This document shows positions 4,605 to 20,292 of a DNA stretch of 20,684 bases, one piece after another. The stretch lies in NCBI GenBank assembly GCA_964458565.1, contig CAYWJO010000053.1, positions 1-20,684 of the forward strand, read 5' to 3'. Numbering within the stretch: position 1 is the first letter of the stretch; the number at the start of each line of letters is the position of its first letter. Made by a program: the position numbers and the translations under genes. This DNA is from an uncultured archaeon (GTDB taxonomy: Archaea > Asgardarchaeota > Thorarchaeia > Thorarchaeales > Thorarchaeaceae). The notes below the pieces were generated by a model. It did not search any database. It saw only the letters and a program-made list of their open reading frames with translations, and was not told the origin of the DNA.

Positions 4605-6065
4605 ATGACAGAACCTCATAAATTTAAAATATATAATAATCTCCAGAGGAATAAATCCATTATTTTTTCCGAAATAAAAGATGCGATTAATTCCCTAGGA
4701 ATTCCTGAAGATGTGAAAGGAAGTTTCGGATTGGGTGGAGGATCTGGTACACCACCTACAATACCGATAGATGTTCTTGATGCAATGCACTCTGCAAGTC
4801 GTAAGGTAATTTCACTTGCAACTTTAGCTGATGAAGTGCGAACACTTGTCAAGGATGTTTATGGAGATTCATACGATGCTGTAGCAACAAGTACTGCAGA
4901 AGCCGCTCTTTGGGTATCCTACGAAGCTTTGTTTACACCGCCGATTCAAGGCAGAGGTGATACGTATCACTCTGCTTACATAGCACCATATGAAAGACAT
5001 CTTCATCACCAAGGAGGGTATGGAAGACCATTTCCACCTAAATACAAGGATCTATTCTCAGATCGTGGAGTTACTTCAGGTGATTTAGGAGTCCAAGGAA
5101 AGAGGTTATCAAACCTTGAAACGTTGATAGTCCCACTTGAAGGAGCAAGATATGAGGTTCATGGAATTAAATACCACACTATTCCAATGTTGACAACAGT
5201 AGATCCGGATAAATCAATTGAAAAAATTAAAATCGTGGCTGATAGACACATTAGCAAATTAGCAGGATTTACATCACTTGGTTATGATACGATAGGATAT
5301 GGATATGATATCAAAGATAGAGATGGAGCTCCAAAATTACAGAAATTAATTGGTAAAACAGCACAAGAGTATAATGTGCCATATATTTGTGATAATGCGA
5401 GAGGACTACCCTTTGGAGGAACTGATCCACGAAAGACTCATGCAGATGTTATTCTGTATAGTATGGACAAAGCTGCTGGAGGTCCAACATGTGGTCTTGT
5501 AATTGGAAAGGAAGATGTAATGATTCCTATTCGAAAAGCTATGGGTGTACATGGTGCTCGTCAAGGAACAACATCTGCATTTGGAAAAGCAGGGTATGTC
5601 ATGGCTGATCCTGGGAAAGAGGCATTAGCAGGATTGGTTGTTTGTTTAAGAAAACTAAAAGAAAATCCAGATCGTTTCAAGAAGAACATTGAAACACTTC
5701 ATGGAATTGTAACTGATGAATTCAGTAAATCAGAATTACTATCACAAGATGGAGTAAGAGTTACAAAATCATACAATGGAGTCTCAGTTGAAGTCAATTA
5801 TGTTGACACGTGGACTACTGAAAAACAAGGATTACCCATATTTAGCATAGAAGATATGTACGCAGGTACAAATCTGATTCAATACGGTTTAGCACAAGCA
5901 GGAATTCGACCCCCCCTGAGTTATGATGGAAATATCTTCATAGTGTTTGGCCAAGCTAATCTAGATAATGAAGACAAAATAATTCCCGAGATTTACGAAT
6001 ATGCTGTGAGAGGGCTCGCAAGAACTATGGAAATAATTGCAAAATGGGGTATCAATCCAAATTGA
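4605..6065 (+). CDS. Fold-type I PLP-dependent enzyme, SelA/DgaE-like
   Basis: PYICDNA (PLP-binding Asp) and ADVILYSMDKAAGGPTCGLVIGK, resembling the SelA-family S-x-D-K-x-x-GGP-x-x-G motif. Confidence 0.75.
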   Translation: MTEPHKFKIYNNLQRNKSIIFSEIKDAINSLGIPEDVKGSFGLGGGSGTPPTIPIDVLDAMHSASRKVISLATLADEVRTLVKDVYGDSYDAVATSTAEAALWVSYEALFTPPIQGRGDTYHSAYIAPYERHLHHQGGYGRPFPPKYKDLFSDRGVTSGDLGVQGKRLSNLETLIVPLEGARYEVHGIKYHTIPMLTTVDPDKSIEKIKIVADRHISKLAGFTSLGYDTIGYGYDIKDRDGAPKLQKLIGKTAQEYNVPYICDNARGLPFGGTDPRKTHADVILYSMDKAAGGPTCGLVIGKEDVMIPIRKAMGVHGARQGTTSAFGKAGYVMADPGKEALAGLVVCLRKLKENPDRFKKNIETLHGIVTDEFSKSELLSQDGVRVTKSYNGVSVEVNYVDTWTTEKQGLPIFSIEDMYAGTNLIQYGLAQAGIRPPLSYDGNIFIVFGQANLDNEDKIIPEIYEYAVRGLARTMEIIAKWGINPN

Positions 6066-6088: not shown

Positions 6089-7159
6089 ATGGATTATGTC
6101 GAAAGCATGCTGGAAGTGATTGGGAATACACCTCTTCTTAAGTTGAATCGAATCGGTAAGGATGTAAAAGCCAATGTCTTTGTGAAATTGGAGCATCTCA
6201 ATCCTAGTGGGAGCTATAAGGACAGAATGGCACTCTCTATGGTCGAGGCTGCTGAGAGGGGGGAAACATGGAATGGTAAAAGACTCAAACCCGGAGGTGT
6301 TGTTTGTGATGCATCCGCAGGAAATACAGCTCCAGCTCTTGCATTTATCTGTGCTATGAAAGGATATGAGATTAGATTATGCTCCTATGCTCATTTTCTT
6401 CATTCAGATGATAAGAAGAAGAGTGCCAGACTAAAAATTAGTTCCGCATTTGGAGCAAACCATTACCCCTGTCCACTACCAGATGATAGTATACTAGAAC
6501 AATTTGATGATGAAAAGGAACGCAGATTCGCAATAATTATTGCAGGGAAACATCACATGTATCAAATGGAACGTGATGATCCAGATGTCATATGGGTCGA
6601 TCAGATTTATAATGACGCAAATTGGAAAGGCCAGATGGCCATGGGGGAGGAGATTTACAAGCAACTCGATGGCAAAATTGATGCATGGGGTGCATCAATA
6701 GGGTCTGGCGCAACATTTCTTGGAGTAGCCACAGCATTGAAAAACCACGGTGTAGAACCATATACATTTGGAGTCGTACCTGATGAAGGAACAAGTCTTG
6801 TAGATATTAGCACAGGTATTATGGATAGTACAACAATGGGTAGACCACCATTGAGGATGAAGATATGCGAAATGTTGAACCTCGAGAAATGGTGCACAGA
6901 AGATTCCATTGTTGAGAAGGTATACAAGGCAGGATATCCGCATAAGTGGTTTGGCGTGACTCAAGAAGATGCACGAAATATGGCAAATAGATTATGTCAA
7001 GAAGAGGGAATCTATTGTGGTATGTCATCAGGTGCAAATGTTTATGCAGCGATGAAAATTGCTGAGGGACTTGACGAGGGTCAAAATGTCGTTACGGTCA
7101 TTGTTGACAGAAGAGACCGCTATTTGGATGAATATCCAAACGATAAGTATGTAGTCTAA
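6089..7159 (+). CDS. Cysteine synthase / cystathionine beta-synthase family PLP enzyme (fold type II), divergent
   Basis: IGNTPL, KLE.LNPSGSYKDR, SAGNT, GSGAT, EEGI.CG.SSGAN, D...RYL; ATG 6089 after AGGTGA. Confidence 0.88.
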   Translation: MDYVESMLEVIGNTPLLKLNRIGKDVKANVFVKLEHLNPSGSYKDRMALSMVEAAERGETWNGKRLKPGGVVCDASAGNTAPALAFICAMKGYEIRLCSYAHFLHSDDKKKSARLKISSAFGANHYPCPLPDDSILEQFDDEKERRFAIIIAGKHHMYQMERDDPDVIWVDQIYNDANWKGQMAMGEEIYKQLDGKIDAWGASIGSGATFLGVATALKNHGVEPYTFGVVPDEGTSLVDISTGIMDSTTMGRPPLRMKICEMLNLEKWCTEDSIVEKVYKAGYPHKWFGVTQEDARNMANRLCQEEGIYCGMSSGANVYAAMKIAEGLDEGQNVVTVIVDRRDRYLDEYPNDKYVV

Positions 7160-7176
7160 CAAGAAGGTGTAAGAAT

Positions 7177-8346
7177 ATGCCAATTAATCTTCAAAGAGCT
7201 CAAAAAATAATGAATGAGAGGGGTCTTGATGCCGTATTAGCATCATCCCCAGAGAATTTCTTCTATGCTAGCGATCTATATATTCCCTTCATAGATCGCT
7301 TTAGAGGATTCCTAAGTGGACTTGGGGCATTTGCGTTAATTCCAAGAGAAGGAGATCTGGTTGTATCTACTACTGCATTAGATGCAGATTTAGCTAAAAT
7401 TACCTCTCCTATCAAAGATATTAGATTCACACGAACCTGGGCATATTTTCAGAGAGATGGTGCTCATGAAATCGAGGTCTACGAGAATCCGGTTGAATCA
7501 TTCAAGGAGATTGTCAAGGAGAAAGGTTTCACAAAAGGGAAAATCGGTATTGAAGAAAAAACGTTACCTATTGTAGATTACAGAGCAATATCAAGTAATT
7601 TGCCTGATGTAGAGTTTGTTGATGCATCTAAGACCTTACTAGATATTAGAGCTGTGAAAATACCAGAGGAAATAGAGAGAATACGGAAAGCATGCAAGAT
7701 CTCAGAAATAGCATTCGATGCCGCCTTCTCGATTTGCCATGAAGGAACATCAGAAGCGCAAATCCTCGGTGCATTTCAACAATCAGTATTGGATCAGCTA
7801 GGATATATCCCTAAAGGAATTCTACATCAGAATTTCACAATCGGTGTTCATTCAGCTACAGTAAGAAGAGGTGAACCGCTTGACTTGAAATTGAAAAAAG
7901 GTGATGTTATGCGATTCGATGGTGGGGCAATATACAAGGGATATCGCTGCGACTTTGCCAGGACGCATGTATTAGGGAAAGCGGATGAGAAAGTTAAGAA
8001 AGTTTACCATGCACTTGTAAAAGCTGAAGAAAAAATCATTGACATGATAAAACCAGGTATAAAATTCTCGGATCTGTATGAAGTTGGATTGAAGACAGTA
8101 CAAGAAAGTGGCTATCCTGACTTCATGAGAAAACATTTTGGTCATGGACTTGGGCTTATTACTGAAGAAGACCCCTTGATTGGACCAAATAATAATACAC
8201 TTGTCCAAGAAGATATGGTTCTTTGTGTTGAAGTCCCCTATTACTGGACCGGAGTAGGTGGTTTCAATGCTGAAGATGTCATGAGAGTACACTCTGATGG
8301 AGTCGAAGTGTTAACACCAAATCTGAGTAAAGAATTAGAGATTTGA
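7177..8346 (+). CDS. Xaa-Pro peptidase (M24B, creatinase/prolidase N-domain) family
   Basis: LDAVLASSPENFFY, RAVK.PEEI, D..G..Y.GY..D..RT, GHGLG, E.P, G...ED; metal ligands appear intact. Confidence 0.92.
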   Translation: MPINLQRAQKIMNERGLDAVLASSPENFFYASDLYIPFIDRFRGFLSGLGAFALIPREGDLVVSTTALDADLAKITSPIKDIRFTRTWAYFQRDGAHEIEVYENPVESFKEIVKEKGFTKGKIGIEEKTLPIVDYRAISSNLPDVEFVDASKTLLDIRAVKIPEEIERIRKACKISEIAFDAAFSICHEGTSEAQILGAFQQSVLDQLGYIPKGILHQNFTIGVHSATVRRGEPLDLKLKKGDVMRFDGGAIYKGYRCDFARTHVLGKADEKVKKVYHALVKAEEKIIDMIKPGIKFSDLYEVGLKTVQESGYPDFMRKHFGHGLGLITEEDPLIGPNNNTLVQEDMVLCVEVPYYWTGVGGFNAEDVMRVHSDGVEVLTPNLSKELEI

Positions 8347-12314: not shown

Positions 12315-13487
12315 GTGAATGATTCAACTGGCCTTGAACAAAACACGAGAGATCCTGTGATTGTTTTTGGAGCGGCATCATTTCTAAATGACATGGGGTC
12401 TGATTTGATTGCTCCAATTTGGCCCACTTTTCTGAGAAATCACATTGGATTAGACCTTTTTCAAGTAGGTGTTGTTGATGGTCTAGCACTGACAATAACT
12501 GCATTGTCAAAGCTGATGTCAGGATACCTCTCAGACAGAACTCAAAAGAGAAAGATATTCATTACATTGGGTTATTTGCTCTCAGTAATTGGTAGACTTG
12601 GTTTCTTTATTTCATATACATTCTATCAGATATTGACATGGAAATCAATGGATAGATTGGGAAAAATTAGAGGCCCACCTCGTGATGCAATTGTAGCATC
12701 TGAAACAGAAACTGGAGAGAGGGGTAGGGCCTTTGGAGTTTTGAGATCATTAGATACAGCGGGAGCAGTAGTTGGTGCAACAATAAGCTACCTTCTCTTT
12801 GTCTATATTGGGTATTTGGGTATAATTCTACTAGCGGCCATTCCAGGAATTTGTTCGGTCATTTTGGTTTCGGTTCTAATAAAGGAAAAGAAAGGCAAAG
12901 ATGTATTCAAAGGAGTAACATTCAGAGGATTAGATAGAAATCTCAAGATGTTCCTTTTTTCATCCTTACTATTTGCATTAGGGACGTATAGCTATTCGTT
13001 CCTGATATTATATTCCCAAGGATTTGGTTTCGGAGAGGCAGTATTACCTCTTCTGTACCTTCTTTTCACCTTCGTGTATGCTGTGAGTAGCTATCCATTT
13101 GGTAGAATTTCAGATACCATCGGTCGCAAACCGATTCTTCTCTTAGCATTCCTTTTCCTAATAATGACCTCAGGATGGGCACTCATAGTTCAGGACTGGT
13201 TTACTGTTGTGATCATGTTCATCTTCTTTGGATTGATGCAGGGGGCTCTAGATCCTGTACAGACTTCGTATATCAGCGATTTAACAGAAGAGAATAGACG
13301 AGCTAGCATTCTTGGAGCATTTCAACTAGTCATTGGTTTGTGTGCCTTACCTGCAGGAGCGATAATTGGTTATCTCTGGGAGTACCTCTATAGTGCAGCA
13401 GCATTTCAATACTCTCTGATCTTATGCGGAATTGCAATCATCACACTAGTATTTGTAAAAGAGAAATCTAGTGAGAATGTCATGTAA
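12315..13487 (+). CDS. MFS transporter
   Basis: SFLND, GYLSDR..KRK, DRLGK.IR.PPRDA, GRAFG..RSLDT.GAV.G, GRISD.IGRK. Confidence 0.93.
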   Translation: MNDSTGLEQNTRDPVIVFGAASFLNDMGSDLIAPIWPTFLRNHIGLDLFQVGVVDGLALTITALSKLMSGYLSDRTQKRKIFITLGYLLSVIGRLGFFISYTFYQILTWKSMDRLGKIRGPPRDAIVASETETGERGRAFGVLRSLDTAGAVVGATISYLLFVYIGYLGIILLAAIPGICSVILVSVLIKEKKGKDVFKGVTFRGLDRNLKMFLFSSLLFALGTYSYSFLILYSQGFGFGEAVLPLLYLLFTFVYAVSSYPFGRISDTIGRKPILLLAFLFLIMTSGWALIVQDWFTVVIMFIFFGLMQGALDPVQTSYISDLTEENRRASILGAFQLVIGLCALPAGAIIGYLWEYLYSAAAFQYSLILCGIAIITLVFVKEKSSENVM

Positions 13488-14010
13488 TGGTCACATCTTG
13501 ACCAGCGAGCTTTCTCAGCATTGCACCTAAACTCATGCTAGTCAGCATATACCATGACCAATAGTACATCCCGAATCCTGCACCTGGAACTGTTATTCCA
13601 ATCCAGTCCTTGAAGAACACTAGGACTGATTCAACATGAAATGGTACAATAGCAATGGGAAGGCCTTGATATATTCCCCCTAAGAGGCTAAAAATGATGA
13701 AGAAGGGGATTATAAAAATTAAATATGGTTTACATCTTGCTCCCATCATATCCGCATTCAAACGCATAATACGCTGCTGCTGGGACATGACCTCCTCTAA
13801 GAGCAATGGATCCATTGTTTTTCTGGCTTCATTAAACCTTTTTTGCCATACTTTTACCTCTTCCATATTCTCTTTCATCTTCTGGACATCAGTGAAACGA
13901 TTTGTTGCCCAAATTGAAAACAGATTAAGACCTATGCTTACGAAGATAATGAAAATTGTCGCCATGGGAGGTTGGATGAGAGATATATACAAATCAGATA
14001 GTAAATCCAT
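13480..14010 (-). CDS. DUF106 / EMC3-TMCO1-like (Oxa1 superfamily) membrane protein
   Basis: TM1, cytosolic coiled coil (D..KMKE.MEE...Q), KP-led TM2, and terminal WY.L.S motif; probable start ATG 14010 (MDLLSD). Confidence 0.85.
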   Translation of the reverse strand: MDLLSDLYISLIQPPMATIFIIFVSIGLNLFSIWATNRFTDVQKMKENMEEVKVWQKRFNEARKTMDPLLLEEVMSQQQRIMRLNADMMGARCKPYLIFIIPFFIIFSLLGGIYQGLPIAIVPFHVESVLVFFKDWIGITVPGAGFGMYYWSWYMLTSMSLGAMLRKLAGQDVTIT

Positions 14011-14213
14011 TATTGGTATCCTCTTTGGTGAATGCAGGCAACTCCAATACGTTTTAAGGCTTATCTTCTGAAATCCTGCTGATTTCACGACTAGAATATC
14101 ATGAGTGTACTAAGATTCCGGAATTTATTACGCCATTCCTTTCTAGATTAATACATACAGATTTAATATATATAAAATGCACAGAAAGAAGCCCGTATGG
14201 TTAAATAATGATA

Positions 14214-14489
14214 GTAAACGATAAATTATTACATGGTAAACGTTAAGAAAATACATTTGGCGCGCTGACCTTAGTAAAGTAAACGTATTCTATAATTTCG
14301 CGCCATTCAATCAAGGCAGCTAGCTCATCATTGCTAGCTTATGTAAAATTGTGCAATAATTTTTGATTCTAATGCACATTGTGCAAATATATTTTAATTT
14401 GCAGAGCTTACTAACAAAATCATACTATCTTCATTAAACAAACGTTTACAACTAAAAACTAACGATGTTTATATATTGGTAACGTGTAC
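14214..14489. repeat. Array 1 of GTAMACG(TT) motifs
   Basis: Plus-strand copies at 14214, 14236 and 14279; minus-strand copies at 14441-14449 and 14481-14489. Confidence 0.8.
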
Positions 14490-14526: not shown

Positions 14527-14796
14527 ATGATGATGTTTACAAGAATGCTCAGAAGACAGGGGTTCTACAGGGTCAAGAACACTGAAGAACCGATTTTTAT
14601 GAAACACAACGTAGGTCTTGGTGGTGTCTACGTTAGAATAGAAGATAGAAAGGCGTACATAACTGTACGTGATCTTGGAATAGAGGAAGAATTCTCACGA
14701 GTTAAACGACTTGAAGATTTTATCAACACTCTTGATGACGAAGCATACCGTCAAAAATGCTTCATAGTACACAAGATGCGTGGAGCCGGGTCTTAA
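14527..14796 (+). CDS. Small basic hypothetical protein (89 aa)
   Basis: TATA box (TTTATATA 14468-14475), GGAGG at 14511-14515, downstream hairpin, protein-like composition. Confidence 0.75.
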   Translation: MMMFTRMLRRQGFYRVKNTEEPIFMKHNVGLGGVYVRIEDRKAYITVRDLGIEEEFSRVKRLEDFINTLDDEAYRQKCFIVHKMRGAGS

Positions 14797-14879: not shown

Positions 14880-16070
14880 TCATAGTTTGGATTTAATGTA
14901 AGAAGGAATAGATTTCATCATCGCACTTCGAACTGATCTCTTCCCAACGAGCATCTCTGCAATTGTCAGTTGAGTCTTTTCCGAATTTAAAAATTGAATA
15001 CCACCTTTGGATTCACTAGAAGTAAAACGTTCCTGTAACCATAGACCCCACTTCAAATCAAAACCAAATTTCTTAATCCAAGCTTTTTCATATTGAGCTA
15101 GTTGTTTCTTTGTTTGTACCTTATTGATAACACGATTTGCAACTTTCGCCGCCATATCACCTGCCATTATTGCATAATGAATCCCTTCACCAGAAATAGG
15201 CAAACAATGCGATGCAGCATCACCAGCTAATAGAATTCGTTCATCATAAGATGGTGTTATGACTCCTGCTAATGGAACCAGAGCAGCTTCTTTCTTGATG
15301 AGTGTAGATTCAGCTAAAATTGACTTGATATGAGGATCAGTGTCTATTAAATCATCAAGGAATACCCCTAGAGGCTTCTCAGATAGCTTCACATTCTCTA
15401 TTAAACCACCTGCACCAATAACCGTTTCAAATTTCCTAGGGAAATTCCACGCATATCCTTTAGGTGAATATTCACCACCATAATAAAATTCCAAAGTGGG
15501 ACTATAAGATGTGGTCTTTGAATTCTTTTGAAAATGATACTGTATACCGTACCCCATTTTAGAATTGGGAATCCTAGTTCGAACAAATCCATCCTTGATA
15601 GATACCGGATTAGCCCCCGATGCATCAATTACTAAGCCAACATTGAATGAGTGATCTGATTGACCATCTGTGAATTGTACAACAATAGCATTATCTTTTC
15701 GCTTTAAACTGCGTACATACGCTCCCATGATAATGGATTCCTTGGACTCCACAAGTTCGACCATTCTTCTTCCAAGAGATTCTCTAGTTACAACAATTCC
15801 CGCAATATAATCAAAATCAATATGAATAGCATCCAAACCAGGGAATTTCATTCTTATCGACTGTATCTCATAGGACTCGGGAACTTCACCGATCTCATAC
15901 TCTTGGATTGCACTTATTGGAATGAAACCTCCACACGGCTTTTTGAGACAAGGGACATCTTCGCGGGCTAAAAGTGTGAAATCAACATCGAGCTGACTGA
16001 GTACTCTTGCTGCTTGCAATCCTGCTGGGCCAGCACCAATTACTAGAACATCATGATCGAGTGAAGCCAT
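14880..16070 (-). CDS. Geranylgeranyl reductase family FAD-dependent oxidoreductase (DGGGPL reductase-like)
   Basis: DVLVIGAGPAG, KPCGG, IDASG, P.GYAW.FP, LAGDAA, P.SGEGI; true start ATG 16070 (MASLDHD). Confidence 0.9.
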   Translation of the reverse strand: MASLDHDVLVIGAGPAGLQAARVLSQLDVDFTLLAREDVPCLKKPCGGFIPISAIQEYEIGEVPESYEIQSIRMKFPGLDAIHIDFDYIAGIVVTRESLGRRMVELVESKESIIMGAYVRSLKRKDNAIVVQFTDGQSDHSFNVGLVIDASGANPVSIKDGFVRTRIPNSKMGYGIQYHFQKNSKTTSYSPTLEFYYGGEYSPKGYAWNFPRKFETVIGAGGLIENVKLSEKPLGVFLDDLIDTDPHIKSILAESTLIKKEAALVPLAGVITPSYDERILLAGDAASHCLPISGEGIHYAIMAGDMAAKVANRVINKVQTKKQLAQYEKAWIKKFGFDLKWGLWLQERFTSSESKGGIQFLNSEKTQLTIAEMLVGKRSVRSAMMKSIPSYIKSKL

Positions 16071-16120
16071 TTCATAATGAAATAACATCTTCATATAATT
16101 AAATAGTGGGATAGGAGTGC

Positions 16121-16370
16121 GTACACGTTCATTATTATATCCTGATGTACTGCGTTTACTCCAGAGTTCATTAGTAATCGCAAGTTTCACTAAACATAAA
16201 TAGTAAACGCGAAAAATTACAAGTAAACGTTGTACACGTTTGATTATTTGATGAATCATGGAAATGGTATAAAATAGCATCCCCAAAAAGACAAATCAAA
16301 TGTATTATCCAGATAATACATAATCAACGTTTACTATTCAACAGAAGTATACTGTAATGTTTACTACTCA
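16121..16370. repeat. Array 2 of GTAMACG(TT) motifs with a 22-bp palindrome
   Basis: Plus-strand copies at 16121, 16203, 16223 and 16232; minus-strand copies at 16151-16159 and 16326-16334; variant AATGTTTAC at 16356; palindrome at 16300-16321. Confidence 0.8.
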
Positions 16371-16452
16371 TTCATCCGCAGTATATGGGGAAAGTAGCTG
16401 TCATGAATCATGATTTGATCTACATCAAGTGACATTCGAATCCGATAATCCC

Positions 16453-16804
16453 ATCCCTCAATTTTCCTCTTTTTTTTGGAGATGACTATGTTTGAACATA
16501 TATTATTATTTCAAAAAGGGTAGCCTATTTGATCTCAATCATATCAAATGCAATTTATTCCAATGATTTGTTGTTCTCACATCAAAGAAATATTCTCTCA
16601 TTTAAATACTATAACTATAGGTTATTCTGAGTAACCCATAGTTATGAACTGCAAAATTAGCATTAAATAGTACTTGTAGCTAAATGCATTTGGGAGGTAA
16701 GTAGTATTTTCAATAACTATAATCGAAGAGATAAGGGTAGTAGTCACAAAACTAAGATTGAGGAATCGAATGGGTTTCCAAAAATAGAAGAGAAATTGAG
16801 GGAT
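16453..16804. other. Inverted-repeat-bounded 352-bp segment: candidate invertible element or recombination site with arm repeats
   Basis: ATCCCTCAATTT (16453-16464) / AAATTGAGGGAT (16793-16804), extendable to 24/30 bp; central 35-bp palindrome; 13 bp from the recombinase stop codon. Confidence 0.6.
16611..16645. other. lox-like palindrome (14-7-14), putative tyrosine recombinase core site
   Basis: ATAACTATAGGTTA-TTCTGAG-TAACCCATAGTTAT; arms match 13/14 as an inverted repeat. Confidence 0.6.
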
Positions 16805-16817
16805 AAAAAAATGAGTT

Positions 16818-17918
16818 CTATTCGAGTTCTATTATGGGACTATCACATCGAATGCAAGTTTTAGAGTTTTTACCAATAATCGAAATTGAGGGATCGTCTT
16901 CAGGGGGGTTGATAGTATCGCAATTAATACAATACCTCTGATGATATTCTGACCTACCAGGTACGAAACGTCCTTGCGCTCGTACTACATCTTCATTGTA
17001 GTCTTCATGAAAGAGTGCAAGATAGTGTTTTTCGAATGTACGAGACCTCTGGGTATGACCAAGACGCGCTCTTATTGAAGAAGTGGGTAATAGACCAGTG
17101 CGTTCCCACCATGTTGCAGCACTCTTTCTAATAGTGTAAGCATATAATGTTCTATCTTGTCTGCGACCACGGTCTCCGATATTTTGACCTAAGGCGTGAA
17201 CTGTCATACGATAACCATTTCGAGTTGGAAAGAGAGGTCCACTTTTTGTAGGGTGATTCTCATAATAAGGAATGAACCACATGTGAGCAATCCAAGTCAT
17301 GAGATCATGTTCTTGGTATTCTCCACTTTTCTCGCGTTTAACACGAACTGACCATTCTGCATTATTATGGAATATATCTTGATAGTCAATACTCACAATC
17401 TCACCTGGTCTAAACGCGGTATCCCATGCGAAAGCAAGTAATGCTTTCCATTTCTTCGATCGAGAAGCTTGTATTAACTCGACGAGATCAGTCACTGAAA
17501 GTCTTTCTTCACGACCGTCCATTTGTCTTGGTACGGTGCTTGTGCTTTTTAGCATACGTTCAATTCTCTGTGAAAAGATAGAATCATAATCAGAACTACT
17601 GCTCAGGAGTTTCTTAATCCGACTGAAGAATGAAATTGGTTGGGTAACATCACTTAGATCATCAACATCATGCACAAATCGAATCCAATGACGAAGCGTG
17701 TTTTTTACAAGATTCATGCTATTTTGAGAGTATCTATTAGAAGCAGAGTATAGAGCTTTTTGGAGGGCAGTGATGTCCACCATGGTGAGTGATTTATTGT
17801 AATCAGTATTAGCAAAAGTTGAGAGCAATTTTAATGCCTTTTGTGCACTAACGTTTGATAATCCTCTCTCAGCTCGTAGGTATATCTCAAATGCAGACCA
17901 GTCGAATTCACTTTTCAT
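16818..17918 (-). CDS. Tyrosine-type recombinase/integrase with C-terminal zinc ribbon
   Basis: XerC/D-like N-terminus (F..YL..ERGLS), TAFRPGE (R), KSG (K), YTIRK (H-x-x-R box with Y), LGH, HY nucleophile; tail CINC...CIRC. Confidence 0.92.
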   Translation of the reverse strand: MKSEFDWSAFEIYLRAERGLSNVSAQKALKLLSTFANTDYNKSLTMVDITALQKALYSASNRYSQNSMNLVKNTLRHWIRFVHDVDDLSDVTQPISFFSRIKKLLSSSSDYDSIFSQRIERMLKSTSTVPRQMDGREERLSVTDLVELIQASRSKKWKALLAFAWDTAFRPGEIVSIDYQDIFHNNAEWSVRVKREKSGEYQEHDLMTWIAHMWFIPYYENHPTKSGPLFPTRNGYRMTVHALGQNIGDRGRRQDRTLYAYTIRKSAATWWERTGLLPTSSIRARLGHTQRSRTFEKHYLALFHEDYNEDVVRAQGRFVPGRSEYHQRYCINCDTINPPEDDPSISIIGKNSKTCIRCDSPIIELE

Positions 17919-18060
17919 TAAATTGAAGATGTCACGATGATAACAAAAGTGGTAGTAATACCCTGGTACTTCCGAAATTTGAAATGAAAAGTCTATAAGA
18001 TTTCATCTTGCTGGCTACTCTAGAGAAAAACTGCTTGTGTGAGTTTGGTGGCGTGAGCTT

Positions 18061-20139
18061 GTGAAGTCTAAAGGCATTGTATTCCTAATTATCTTATCAC
18101 TCATCCAATCAACACCGGTTGGATATGCTGCAGAAATTGTAACACATAGTGACACAATAGAAGGTTCTTCATTGTCTTTCAGACAATTGGTGCCATATCC
18201 GGAATTTTCGAGTCAACCCAATATAACAAATACAGGCACTTCGAGTCAATTCTCCTATGAGTATGAAAATAATGAAGTAAGACTCATATGGTCACATGAA
18301 GCGGGAACCCGGTTAGATTTTCGTGAACAACCTGATGAAAACTTGCCTGATTGTAAGGAATTCATCTACCTGTCACAGGATATGCATTGGCCAATTGACA
18401 ACTTCCCACTTGAGCGTAAGCTCACTGTAAACTTTCAAGTGATATTTAACGGATCATTTAATGAGGAAATTGCAGGTCCACGGATGTTCACTGTATATAT
18501 GTGGTTCATTGATTCATCAGGAAATTGGGTCAAAGTCTATGAATCATTTCCGCCGTACGTTACACAAGGTGGGAGAGAAATCATTCTAAGTAACTTTGAG
18601 GTCGAAGACATATGGGAAGGAATGATAGCCGATGAAGAAGGAAATCAAGAAAATCCGACGGATGTATTTGAGCTAGCTATAGGAATAGCGCCATCACTTA
18701 ACATGGAGAGTGATCTGTATGGAAATCCGTGGGAATTCTACAACGGATCGGTGACAGTGTCTGTGCAAGGAATTAGTTTAGAAGTATTACTCGACAGTGG
18801 AGGTAATCCACAGGCTCGCACTCCATCATATTTTGGAAACATCACGTTTGGATACTATACCCTCTGCGAGGATATGACATTTGATAGTATAGGGAATGTT
18901 TACACAGTAGGCACAATCATGGATTATACTGACAGAGTCTATTGTCTTGTTCTAACTAAATGGGATTCTAACGCTCAAATTCAATGGACAAAATTATGGA
19001 ATGGAACACCGTATGCTCAGGGTCACGGTATTGCTACGAATGAGAACAATATCTACACCGTTGGTTCTGTATTTAATGAAAGTGGTAACCTGGATTTTTC
19101 CATAGTAAAATGGGATACTAATGGAAACGTTAATTGGGAAAAGACGTGGGATGGCGAGGAGTCATGGCTTGATCTGGAACCTTATTTGGAAAATCGTCTT
19201 GGACCGGACTATGAGATTCTAAATCATTCGTTTTCTGATGATAGAGGGTTAGCTATCGAAATCAATGATAATGGAGATTTACTCTCACTTGTTAAGAGTT
19301 CTTTTAATATGGATTTGTATAATGAAGAAAGTGACGCCATCCATTCATATTCAGCCGACATTCTGACACTACTCATTCATAGTCAGGACGGGAATCTTCT
19401 ACAAACTGAGATAATCGACATGAACTCATGGATATGGGATGAATATGTTGATATTCAAATATCGGATAATTACATTTACACAATAGGTTCCAATATAACG
19501 AAACTAGATAAGGAATACAACATCGAATGGTCTACCTTGGGATGGGGTGACTTTATTGTAAGAAAAGACGACGTTTTTTGTAATAGTGCAGGTTATGATA
19601 GTTGGGAGATCTATGAATTCCTTCTAGACCCTTCTTTCCCATACTTTAATAATTTTTCATGGTTCTGGCACGGAATATTGGATCTAGGTGATTCTCCATG
19701 GTTGCCTTCCTACTATAACGGACCATCTACATACCTATCAGATAACTCAATTATTTCCATGATGGAACTGTCGTACTACTATCCGGATATATATCAAACT
19801 GGCGATTCAAATTCTTATTCTCTATCAGAACTATATCTTGTGAAATTGAATGCCTCTCACCAAATAGAATGGTTAGACAGAATAGAACTGGATTATTGGC
19901 CTTCAGCTACCCTAGATCAGGGTAATGGAATTCTCAAATATCGTGAATCTACGGGACAGATTCTATTTGCAGGAACATCATATGCTGGAATTTCACTCTA
20001 CATATTTAATGATCGCTCAGTTGCACCTCCTGGATATGATTTTGGGATTGTAATTTATGGAGTATCAGCTGCTCTCATTGGTTTAGTGGCGGTTGATTAT
20101 TTGAGACGAAGAAGGAATGCGAGTTCATCGGAAATTTGA
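18061..20139 (+). CDS. Secreted, C-terminally membrane-anchored acidic cell-surface protein with beta-propeller-like repeats
   Basis: N-terminal signal peptide; repeats D..GNVYTVG...L.KWD.N....W.K.W.G; C-terminal TM helix followed by RRRR. Confidence 0.8.
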   Translation: MKSKGIVFLIILSLIQSTPVGYAAEIVTHSDTIEGSSLSFRQLVPYPEFSSQPNITNTGTSSQFSYEYENNEVRLIWSHEAGTRLDFREQPDENLPDCKEFIYLSQDMHWPIDNFPLERKLTVNFQVIFNGSFNEEIAGPRMFTVYMWFIDSSGNWVKVYESFPPYVTQGGREIILSNFEVEDIWEGMIADEEGNQENPTDVFELAIGIAPSLNMESDLYGNPWEFYNGSVTVSVQGISLEVLLDSGGNPQARTPSYFGNITFGYYTLCEDMTFDSIGNVYTVGTIMDYTDRVYCLVLTKWDSNAQIQWTKLWNGTPYAQGHGIATNENNIYTVGSVFNESGNLDFSIVKWDTNGNVNWEKTWDGEESWLDLEPYLENRLGPDYEILNHSFSDDRGLAIEINDNGDLLSLVKSSFNMDLYNEESDAIHSYSADILTLLIHSQDGNLLQTEIIDMNSWIWDEYVDIQISDNYIYTIGSNITKLDKEYNIEWSTLGWGDFIVRKDDVFCNSAGYDSWEIYEFLLDPSFPYFNNFSWFWHGILDLGDSPWLPSYYNGPSTYLSDNSIISMMELSYYYPDIYQTGDSNSYSLSELYLVKLNASHQIEWLDRIELDYWPSATLDQGNGILKYRESTGQILFAGTSYAGISLYIFNDRSVAPPGYDFGIVIYGVSAALIGLVAVDYLRRRRNASSSEI

Positions 20140-20292
20140 CATATCATTAGTTGAAAATAGACATAATCACATATCATTTATATCCCAAAGGTTCTAAACA
20201 TGGCATAGAATGTACGGAATATGTGCAGGTAACTAGTATAAGTCGCTTGTACAACATGTAGATAACATGAATATCATACGGTTGGCTTAGAA

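Follow-up and report, generated by a model that had tools for sequence, protein, structure and literature searches.

Two described systems that use a single large tyrosine recombinase are XerS/difSL, found in streptococci and lactococci, and XerH/difH, found in Helicobacter and Campylobacter, and difSL is a 31 bp site with a long central region. XerS is 356 aa and XerH 354–362 aa in length, the genes adjoin their sites, and one half-site is bound more strongly than the other (PMC5357621). In archaea, dif is a 28 bp site with an 11-6-11 arrangement (PMC2958812, PMC8371274), and the Thermococcales dif does not lie beside xerA (PMC2958812). Here, we examine a locus on a 20 684 nt stretch of DNA (the window), which is an entire contig (C53) of a Thorarchaeota metagenome-assembled genome (MAG) made up of 93 contigs (3.73 Mb, 93 % complete). 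The locus includes a 35 bp near-palindrome with a 14-7-14 arrangement, designated PAL (positions 16611–16645), and the gene for a 366 aa tyrosine recombinase, designated Int (16818–17918, minus strand), which has an Xer-like two-domain core and a C-terminal zinc ribbon. PAL is here taken to be the core site of a gene-linked, single-recombinase module that probably serves replicon dimer resolution, and from the sequence comparisons set out below we would give this reading a probability of roughly 0.55.

PAL consists of a 14 nt left arm on the side of GGR, a geranylgeranyl-reductase-family gene (16611–16624, plus strand), a 7 nt spacer that is presumed to be the overlap region (16625–16631) and a 14 nt right arm on the recombinase side (16632–16645, plus strand), which is one mismatch away from perfect symmetry. 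The original prediction, made from the letters of the window, had reported this palindrome, and 13 of the 14 arm positions are indeed complementary. It had also described the spacer as asymmetric, which holds for the outermost T...G pair and the centre, but the asymmetry is otherwise weak; the inner five bases are palindromic and extend the symmetry around one central base, making PAL close to a 17-1-17 palindrome. Two inverted arms of 11–14 bp around a spacer of 6–8 bp is the format of a tyrosine recombinase core site, and PAL follows it in the window as well as in 17 related contigs.

Palindromes of equal quality, namely those with 14 nt arms containing no more than one mismatch and a spacer of 5–9 nt, are present at seven loci (13 overlapping counts) in the 3.73 Mb assembly compared to 2–9 counts in block-shuffled genomes, and about 0.03 would be expected by chance in a 20.7 kb window. 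Taken alone, PAL is within chance at the scale of the genome, and its significance comes from its conservation in relatives. That it is a chance palindrome without function, as might be supposed from the genome having about as many such palindromes as shuffled sequence, is scarcely credible, because it is conserved base for base across lineages in which synonymous sites are saturated, and the comparative data refute this explanation.

The conservation is best appreciated against the divergence of the surrounding DNA. For Int, the rate of non-synonymous substitution (dN) ranges from 0.05 to 0.16 and that of synonymous substitution (dS) is >2, i.e. saturated, giving dN/dS values of approximately 0.03–0.07. 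Within 400 bp on either side of PAL, the related loci L017 and L060 differ at 45 positions and L057 and L017 at 124, and in neither pair is any difference inside PAL, while the only PAL difference between L017 and L018 is at the central base of the spacer. Despite the saturated dS, one arm is fixed, as are the innermost 4 bp of its partner and all but one of the seven spacer bases. Both the recombinase gene and PAL are under purifying selection.

Read in the direction of Int, the proximal arm in the relatives is an invariant 14-mer, save for the outermost base in L062 and L065, and the left arm in the window is equal to it. The spacer is T-T-C-N-G-A-G, where N is A, G or T, with a single change in one lineage; the central, unpaired base varies freely and the other six are fixed. 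In the distal arm, the inner four bases and a TAGT block are kept, and between zero and three other positions vary without a compensating change in the first arm. The two outer bases of the spacer are never complementary, as the symmetric combinations C...G or T...A were not seen, though both polarities occur. This anatomy fits a DNA site with one strong and one weak half-site, like those of XerS/difSL and of XerH/difH in H. pylori (PMC5357621).

The site and the gene also occur together. PAL was found in 17 related contigs representing about a dozen lineages (L013, L015–L022, L031, L056, L057, L060 and L062–L065), all of which carry an Int orthologue nearby wherever the length of the contig allows. 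Among 86 genomes of the family, five include PAL with three or fewer mismatches (G000, G055, G074, G076 and G087), and an Int orthologue (E ≤1e-40) is present in exactly those five; the remaining 81 have neither. The original prediction had held that retention of the site in genomes lacking the recombinase would speak against it, and no such case was found among the 86. The non-carriers keep the flanking genes (the receiver-domain gene RR1, RR2 and an ATPase gene), and their DNA between GGR and RR1 cannot be aligned with that of the carriers and does not include PAL. More broadly, when one genome from each of 185 579 species was searched, PAL was confined to these Thorarchaeota MAGs, and it was absent from the 2.9 million viral contigs of IMG/VR. 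Neither PAL nor a comparable palindrome was found beside homologues of Int that are 30–41 % identical to it (L005–L008, L033, L058 and L059). PAL occupies the same chromosomal position across two genera. A search of its own assembly for further copies, as had been suggested at the outset, revealed no second PAL, either as the exact pattern or with up to four mismatches per arm, and each related strain likewise has one copy, which is the one site per replicon of an Xer/dif-type system. Hence, gene and site form a unit that is vertically inherited, single-copy and under selection.

The recombinase belongs to the tyrosine recombinase superfamily, scoring 43 bits against PF00589 (Phage_integrase, cut-off 27.1). 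It is the sole PF00589 match and the sole XerA-like match detected in the genome, which is 93 % complete, and the lack of a detected competitor supports the pairing of PAL with Int. Though the original prediction, that PAL is the crossover site of the neighbouring recombinase, went further than the comparisons do, the link between gene and site was borne out by their strict co-occurrence, their restricted distribution, the selection on both and the core-like architecture, and it is quite likely that PAL is the cognate site of the adjacent recombinase.

Matches of Int to NCBIfam models are weak and limited to XerA, XerC and XerD. A search of 1.84 billion cluster representatives with HMMER returned only three proteins with E-values below 1e-30 and 11 below 1e-10, and Int represents a small, divergent Xer-like clade. 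Its orthologues in Thorarchaeota MAGs and metagenomes are 76–80 % identical. Among 32 homologues, R170, R264, G287 and Y299 are invariant and K197 is nearly so, and the protein sequence reveals that H288 precedes the tyrosine and that the position of the first histidine is occupied by Tyr261. With R170, K197, R264, H288 and Y299 conserved and an Xer-like fold and profile, Int looks catalytically active. A zinc ribbon with two Cys-x-x-Cys pairs, at approximately residues 330–358, is found in all close homologues, including those from mobile elements, and is an unusual trait for tyrosine recombinases. The AlphaFold (AF2) model of Int has a mean predicted local distance difference test score of 89, and the zinc ribbon is modelled with high confidence.

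A direct phmmer search of the PDB with Int produced no hits. When profiles were compared with solved structures, archaeal XerA was the best match (4a8e and 5hxy), followed by XerD; the E-values for 4a8e and 5hxy were 1e-38 and 5e-36 with a broad profile, and 9e-7 and 1e-4 when only the close clade was used. Foldseek matched the Int model to XerA, Cre, the lambda Int core and XerH, with XerA first by E-value. XerA/dif (Pyrococcus, Thermoplasma, Sulfolobus) is thus the nearest solved relative, and it shares with the module a single-copy site and a two-domain build that has no arm-binding domain; Int lacks the N-terminal arm-binding domain of the lambda type, its match to XerA beginning at residue 3. 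Nevertheless, membership of XerA/dif was rejected. Int scores 38.9 bits against the archaeal XerA equivalog model NF040815, where the cut-off is 220, the site is 35 bp and 14-7-14 rather than 11-6-11, and it is linked to the gene. Int also has about 65 additional residues at the C-terminus, which include the zinc ribbon.

In organization, the module resembles XerS/difSL and XerH/difH. These likewise use one large recombinase, 366 aa in the case of Int, and a single chromosomal site linked to the gene, with imperfect inverted arms. They have one stronger half-site, for which the counterpart here is the unequal conservation of the arms, suggestive of unequal binding. On the other hand, the host is an archaeon, no FtsK partner is known, and the 14-7-14 site is unlike the 31 bp difSL. 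Nor does Int belong to either family, as XerH scores with the broad profile and not with the profile built from the clade only. The zinc ribbon at the C-terminus and the occurrence in one subclade are further differences.

The original prediction had also drawn attention to a likeness to loxP. The loxP site is 13-8-13 and has the same outer hexamer as the arms of PAL, and Cre, from phage P1, resembles Int in being a simple tyrosine recombinase, in having a palindrome close to its gene and in its fold (template modelling score 0.55–0.58). However, PAL is 14-7-14, its arms diverge from those of loxP after the first 6 bp, Int and Cre share only 13–17 % identity and the profile favours XerA. The shared hexamer amounts to one 6-mer that the palindrome mirrors, and kinship with loxP was not upheld; judged from the sequences, the resemblance is a coincidence.

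The position of PAL in the relatives, within a long intergenic region upstream of RR1, would also suit an operator at which a dimeric transcription factor controls the response-regulator genes further downstream, or else a hairpin of the terminator type in the recombinase transcript, and PAL as single-stranded DNA folds into a hairpin of greater stability than shuffled controls (z=−3.5). We consider this improbable. The neighbourhood of RR1, RR2 and the ATPase gene is kept in 81 genomes that have neither the recombinase nor PAL, and in the window PAL has moved with Int, away from RR1. The non-compensatory changes in the arms argue against an RNA hairpin, and transcription termination in archaea is not known to need hairpins. 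An RNA element was rejected on the grounds of these arm changes and because no Rfam family matched the window or any of four related loci.

Past the stop codon of Int lies a conserved 28 nt box, boxA (16777–16804, minus strand), which is 131 bp from PAL and is a candidate accessory element. It is nearly invariant in all related loci and its distance from PAL is steady at approximately 125–130 bp, even where additional open reading frames (ORFs; in L013 and L015) or some 270 bp of DNA (in L057) lie between it and the Int stop codon. The constancy of this distance despite insertions suggests that the DNA from boxA to PAL acts as one unit. The conserved stretch of about 150 bp is found on the Int side only, and in the other genus it is accompanied by a short repeat of part of an arm, on the same side of PAL and at a distance of about 35 bp. 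It is comparable to the one-sided conserved DNA of cer- and psi-type Xer sites, though no accessory proteins are known here.

In this genome only, a mirror-image second boxA lies on the far side of PAL (16453–16480, plus strand), at a distance of 130 bp. The palindrome had been placed at the centre of the module, and in the window it does lie midway between the inverted 28 nt boxes, but the relatives carry only the boxA on the recombinase side. The core motif of boxA is also found within the Int coding sequence, between the two Cys pairs (16882–16894, minus strand), where it forms a direct repeat and is in the same place in the orthologous genes, and three of the 11 copies of the boxA 11-mer in the genome are within this locus. 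These repeats raise the question of whether the boxA copies are themselves crossover sites that bound an invertible segment, as in shufflon- or fim-like switches, particularly as the two inverted copies are symmetrically placed and the whole Int-boxA-PAL unit is inverted between GGR and RR1 in the window relative to all relatives. Such a switch is very improbable, as the single boxA beside PAL in the relatives provides no pair of sites, the 296 bp segment between the boxes includes no arrangement of promoter and gene that a flip could alter, and the inversion that was observed covers the gene and not the 296 bp.

Three further candidates were tried and rejected. A large inverted duplication around PAL was dismissed since only the 28 nt box aligns and the 130 bp intervals and the remainder do not. 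The repeated box motif raised the possibility of a replication origin, but there is no adjacent Orc1/Cdc6 gene and the box follows the Int stop codon in all relatives. A telomere-resolution (protelomerase) site was excluded as, in every lineage, contigs extend beyond PAL in both directions and the protein is of the Xer-like two-domain type, not the TelN/ResT type.

The nearest outgroup recombinases, which share 41–49 % identity with Int and have the same zinc ribbon, and among which P0016 and P0018 are 47–49 % identical to it, are encoded on contigs (that of P0018, 69.8 kb, and those of P0019, L058 and L059) that carry many small ORFs of unknown function, DNA methyltransferases and a VRR-NUC nuclease, and that are probably Asgard viruses or plasmids. 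The module could, therefore, be the relic of an integrative element, with PAL a former att core (attP or an attL/attR hybrid) and the integrase gene left behind, in which case the recombinase would now have no function in the host or another one, for example as an integration platform for related elements. The patchy distribution of the module, the variable content of the interval between GGR and RR1 among the relatives and the loss of PAL from one strain are all in keeping with this. Yet several features are difficult to reconcile with it. There is no second PAL or PAL-like site in the genome and, hence, no attL/attR pair, genes of mobile elements adjoin the module in none of the 17 contigs, PAL is missing from the viral contigs searched and there is no tRNA gene in the window. 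The position is the same across two genera, and strong purifying selection at saturated dS is not expected of a stranded integrase. The additional ORFs near the module are not foreign cargo; those at L013:5182–6327 and L015:5182–6389 and 6717–7241 correspond to the neighbouring HEAT-repeat gene, as diverged fragments or paralogues of it, and they are located between Int and boxA and also beyond PAL, one of them being split in two in L015. We consider that a relic is unlikely, though it is the most probable of the alternatives.

Closely related strains provide a view of changes at the site itself. When the loci are read relative to Int, 14 contigs have T...G as the outer bases of the spacer, and L056, L062, L065 and the window have C...A. 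L062 and L064 are 99.675 % identical over 7988 bp, with 26 differences and no gaps, and 12 of the 26 differences are in a 77 bp patch that extends from −27 to +49 around PAL (L062:5640–5716 and L064:4661–4737; Poisson P ~1e-16). Within this patch, the spacer is exactly reverse-complemented, at all three asymmetric positions, and the outermost base has changed symmetrically in both arms, while the 1.1 kb Int gene has no differences. The allele of L062 is also present in L065, which comes from a third sample, and no donor lineage for the patch was found among the sampled loci. In L056, only the spacer is reversed and the arms and flanks match those of the relatives, which limits the flipped segment to about 19 bp or less. 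An attempt to orient PAL on the chromosome using the spacer and flanks was dropped, as the polarity of the spacer flips independently of the arms and flanks. Overall, breakage and rejoining of the DNA have been more frequent at PAL than around it.

The flips can be accounted for in two ways. The 7 bp loop of PAL, exactly reverse-complemented between identical stems in near-identical genomes, recalls the small hairpin-loop inversions of plastid genomes, which are flanked by short inverted repeats, and as in those, recombination or template switching in the hairpin stems, with no enzyme involved, can produce the changes seen here. The stems in this case are the arms of a putative recombinase site, in contrast to those plastid examples, and the flip could be the work of the enzyme. 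The second route is an abortive exchange of strands between sister sites in antiparallel arrangement, for which the near-symmetric spacer would leave room, and flipping by the enzyme would explain both the exact reversal of the spacer and the cluster of mutations around it. Carried to its full extent, this would make the module the dimer or multimer resolution system of a Thorarchaeota lineage without XerA, recruited from a virus or plasmid integrase with a zinc ribbon, whose enzyme flips the polarity of its own spacer via exchange between antiparallel sister sites. We regard this combined scenario as speculative and rather unlikely.

If PAL is the core site of a single-recombinase module, as we favour, two Int monomers would occupy the 14 bp arms, with strong binding at the invariant arm and weak binding at the variable one. 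Cleavage would be expected at the edges of the 7 bp spacer, as with other tyrosine recombinases, and strand exchange would involve a second, identical PAL. The natural partner would be the copy of PAL on a sister or dimeric replicon, because there is one PAL per chromosome and no foreign copy was found, and this makes the resolution of chromosome dimers or multimers the most economical role, in parallel with XerS/difSL, XerH/difH and the Cre/loxP pair of P1. The DNA from boxA to PAL, about 150 bp long, may be an accessory region of the kind found beside cer and psi. Granted that PAL is the site of the recombinase, we would put dimer resolution as its role at a little short of even odds.

A number of observations weigh against this reading. 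The outgroups on virus- or plasmid-like contigs point to a mobile-element origin for the recombinase. The module is restricted to one subclade, five of the 86 family genomes, and is not conserved throughout the lineage. Moreover, the ATPase gene next to the module is 86–88 % identical among the carriers and 78–80 % identical to that of non-carriers, and the five positive genomes probably form one clade, so that the co-occurrence of gene and site counts as one or two evolutionary events and not five. None of 61 family genomes, which include two single-contig assemblies, has a canonical XerA above the NF040815 cut-off, and in 37 of them, again including the two single-contig assemblies, no XerA-like hit was detected at E ≤1e-5. 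A need for dimer resolution is therefore not obvious in the lineage, and the other members of the family apparently get by with no Xer. Finally, L014, which is 99.85 % identical to L015, has lost about 58 bp including PAL (L014:6530–6560 compared to L015:6544–6601), with Int intact and the protein identical. Hence, the module is best seen as a domesticated mobile-element integrase, for which resolution is probably, but not certainly, the present role.

The context of the module differs between the window and the relatives. Where contigs of the relatives are long enough, the order is the HEAT-repeat gene (plus), GGR (minus), Int (plus), PAL, RR1 (plus) and RR2 (plus). The window includes an EMC3/DUF106-like membrane protein gene (13480–14088, minus strand), an ORF of 89 aa, p89 (14527–14796, plus strand), GGR (14880–16082/16286, minus strand), PAL, which is 172 bp from the Int stop codon, Int, a 692 aa ORF that belongs to no family (18061–20139, plus strand) and RR1 (from 20293, plus strand). 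Compared to the relatives (L013–L022 and L060–L065), over 14880–20292 it has the recombinase-site unit inverted and lacks the HEAT-repeat gene, and GGR is 44–47 % identical while p89 and RR1 are 75–80 % identical. GC skew in the window, which is only 20.7 kb, tracks the strand of the genes, and no signal on the scale of a replichore was seen on a 124 kb syntenic contig of a relative or on the three largest contigs of this genome.

The 692 aa ORF has a weak hint of a beta-propeller and is absent from all related loci. It is bracketed by a 20 nt direct repeat (17966–17985 and 20123–20142, 80 % identity) and is possibly an insertion. A short G-T-A-M-A-C-G motif is arrayed on both sides of GGR (14214–14481 and 16121–16326). 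A conserved motif of about 27 nt, in which a C-C-C-T-C-A-A core precedes a T-rich C-G-A repeat, is located upstream of the Int gene, and a second, inverted copy is found about 200 bp past PAL (L017:3816–3869 and 5519–5552); relatives without the recombinase have a single copy (L039:10979–11029 and L040:9119–9170).

A tyrosine recombinase beside a palindromic site is of a familiar kind, and specialists would find nothing surprising in the basic idea; its two unusual traits are the zinc ribbon and the flips of the spacer that occur naturally. A literature search found no published Xer/dif or comparable system in Thorarchaeota and, if confirmed, this would be the first candidate for a gene-linked pair of recombinase and site described for the Asgard archaea. 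A simple recombinase of 366 aa with a 35 bp site that was found nowhere else in large databases is also a plausible orthogonal tool beside Cre, Flp and Dre. Near-identical strains that differ by a flip of the spacer provide a way into the question of how the polarity of a site is set and lost in nature. If confirmed, the module would illustrate the domestication of a mobile-element integrase and, as none of the 61 family genomes has a canonical XerA, it could show how some Asgard archaea resolve replicon dimers.

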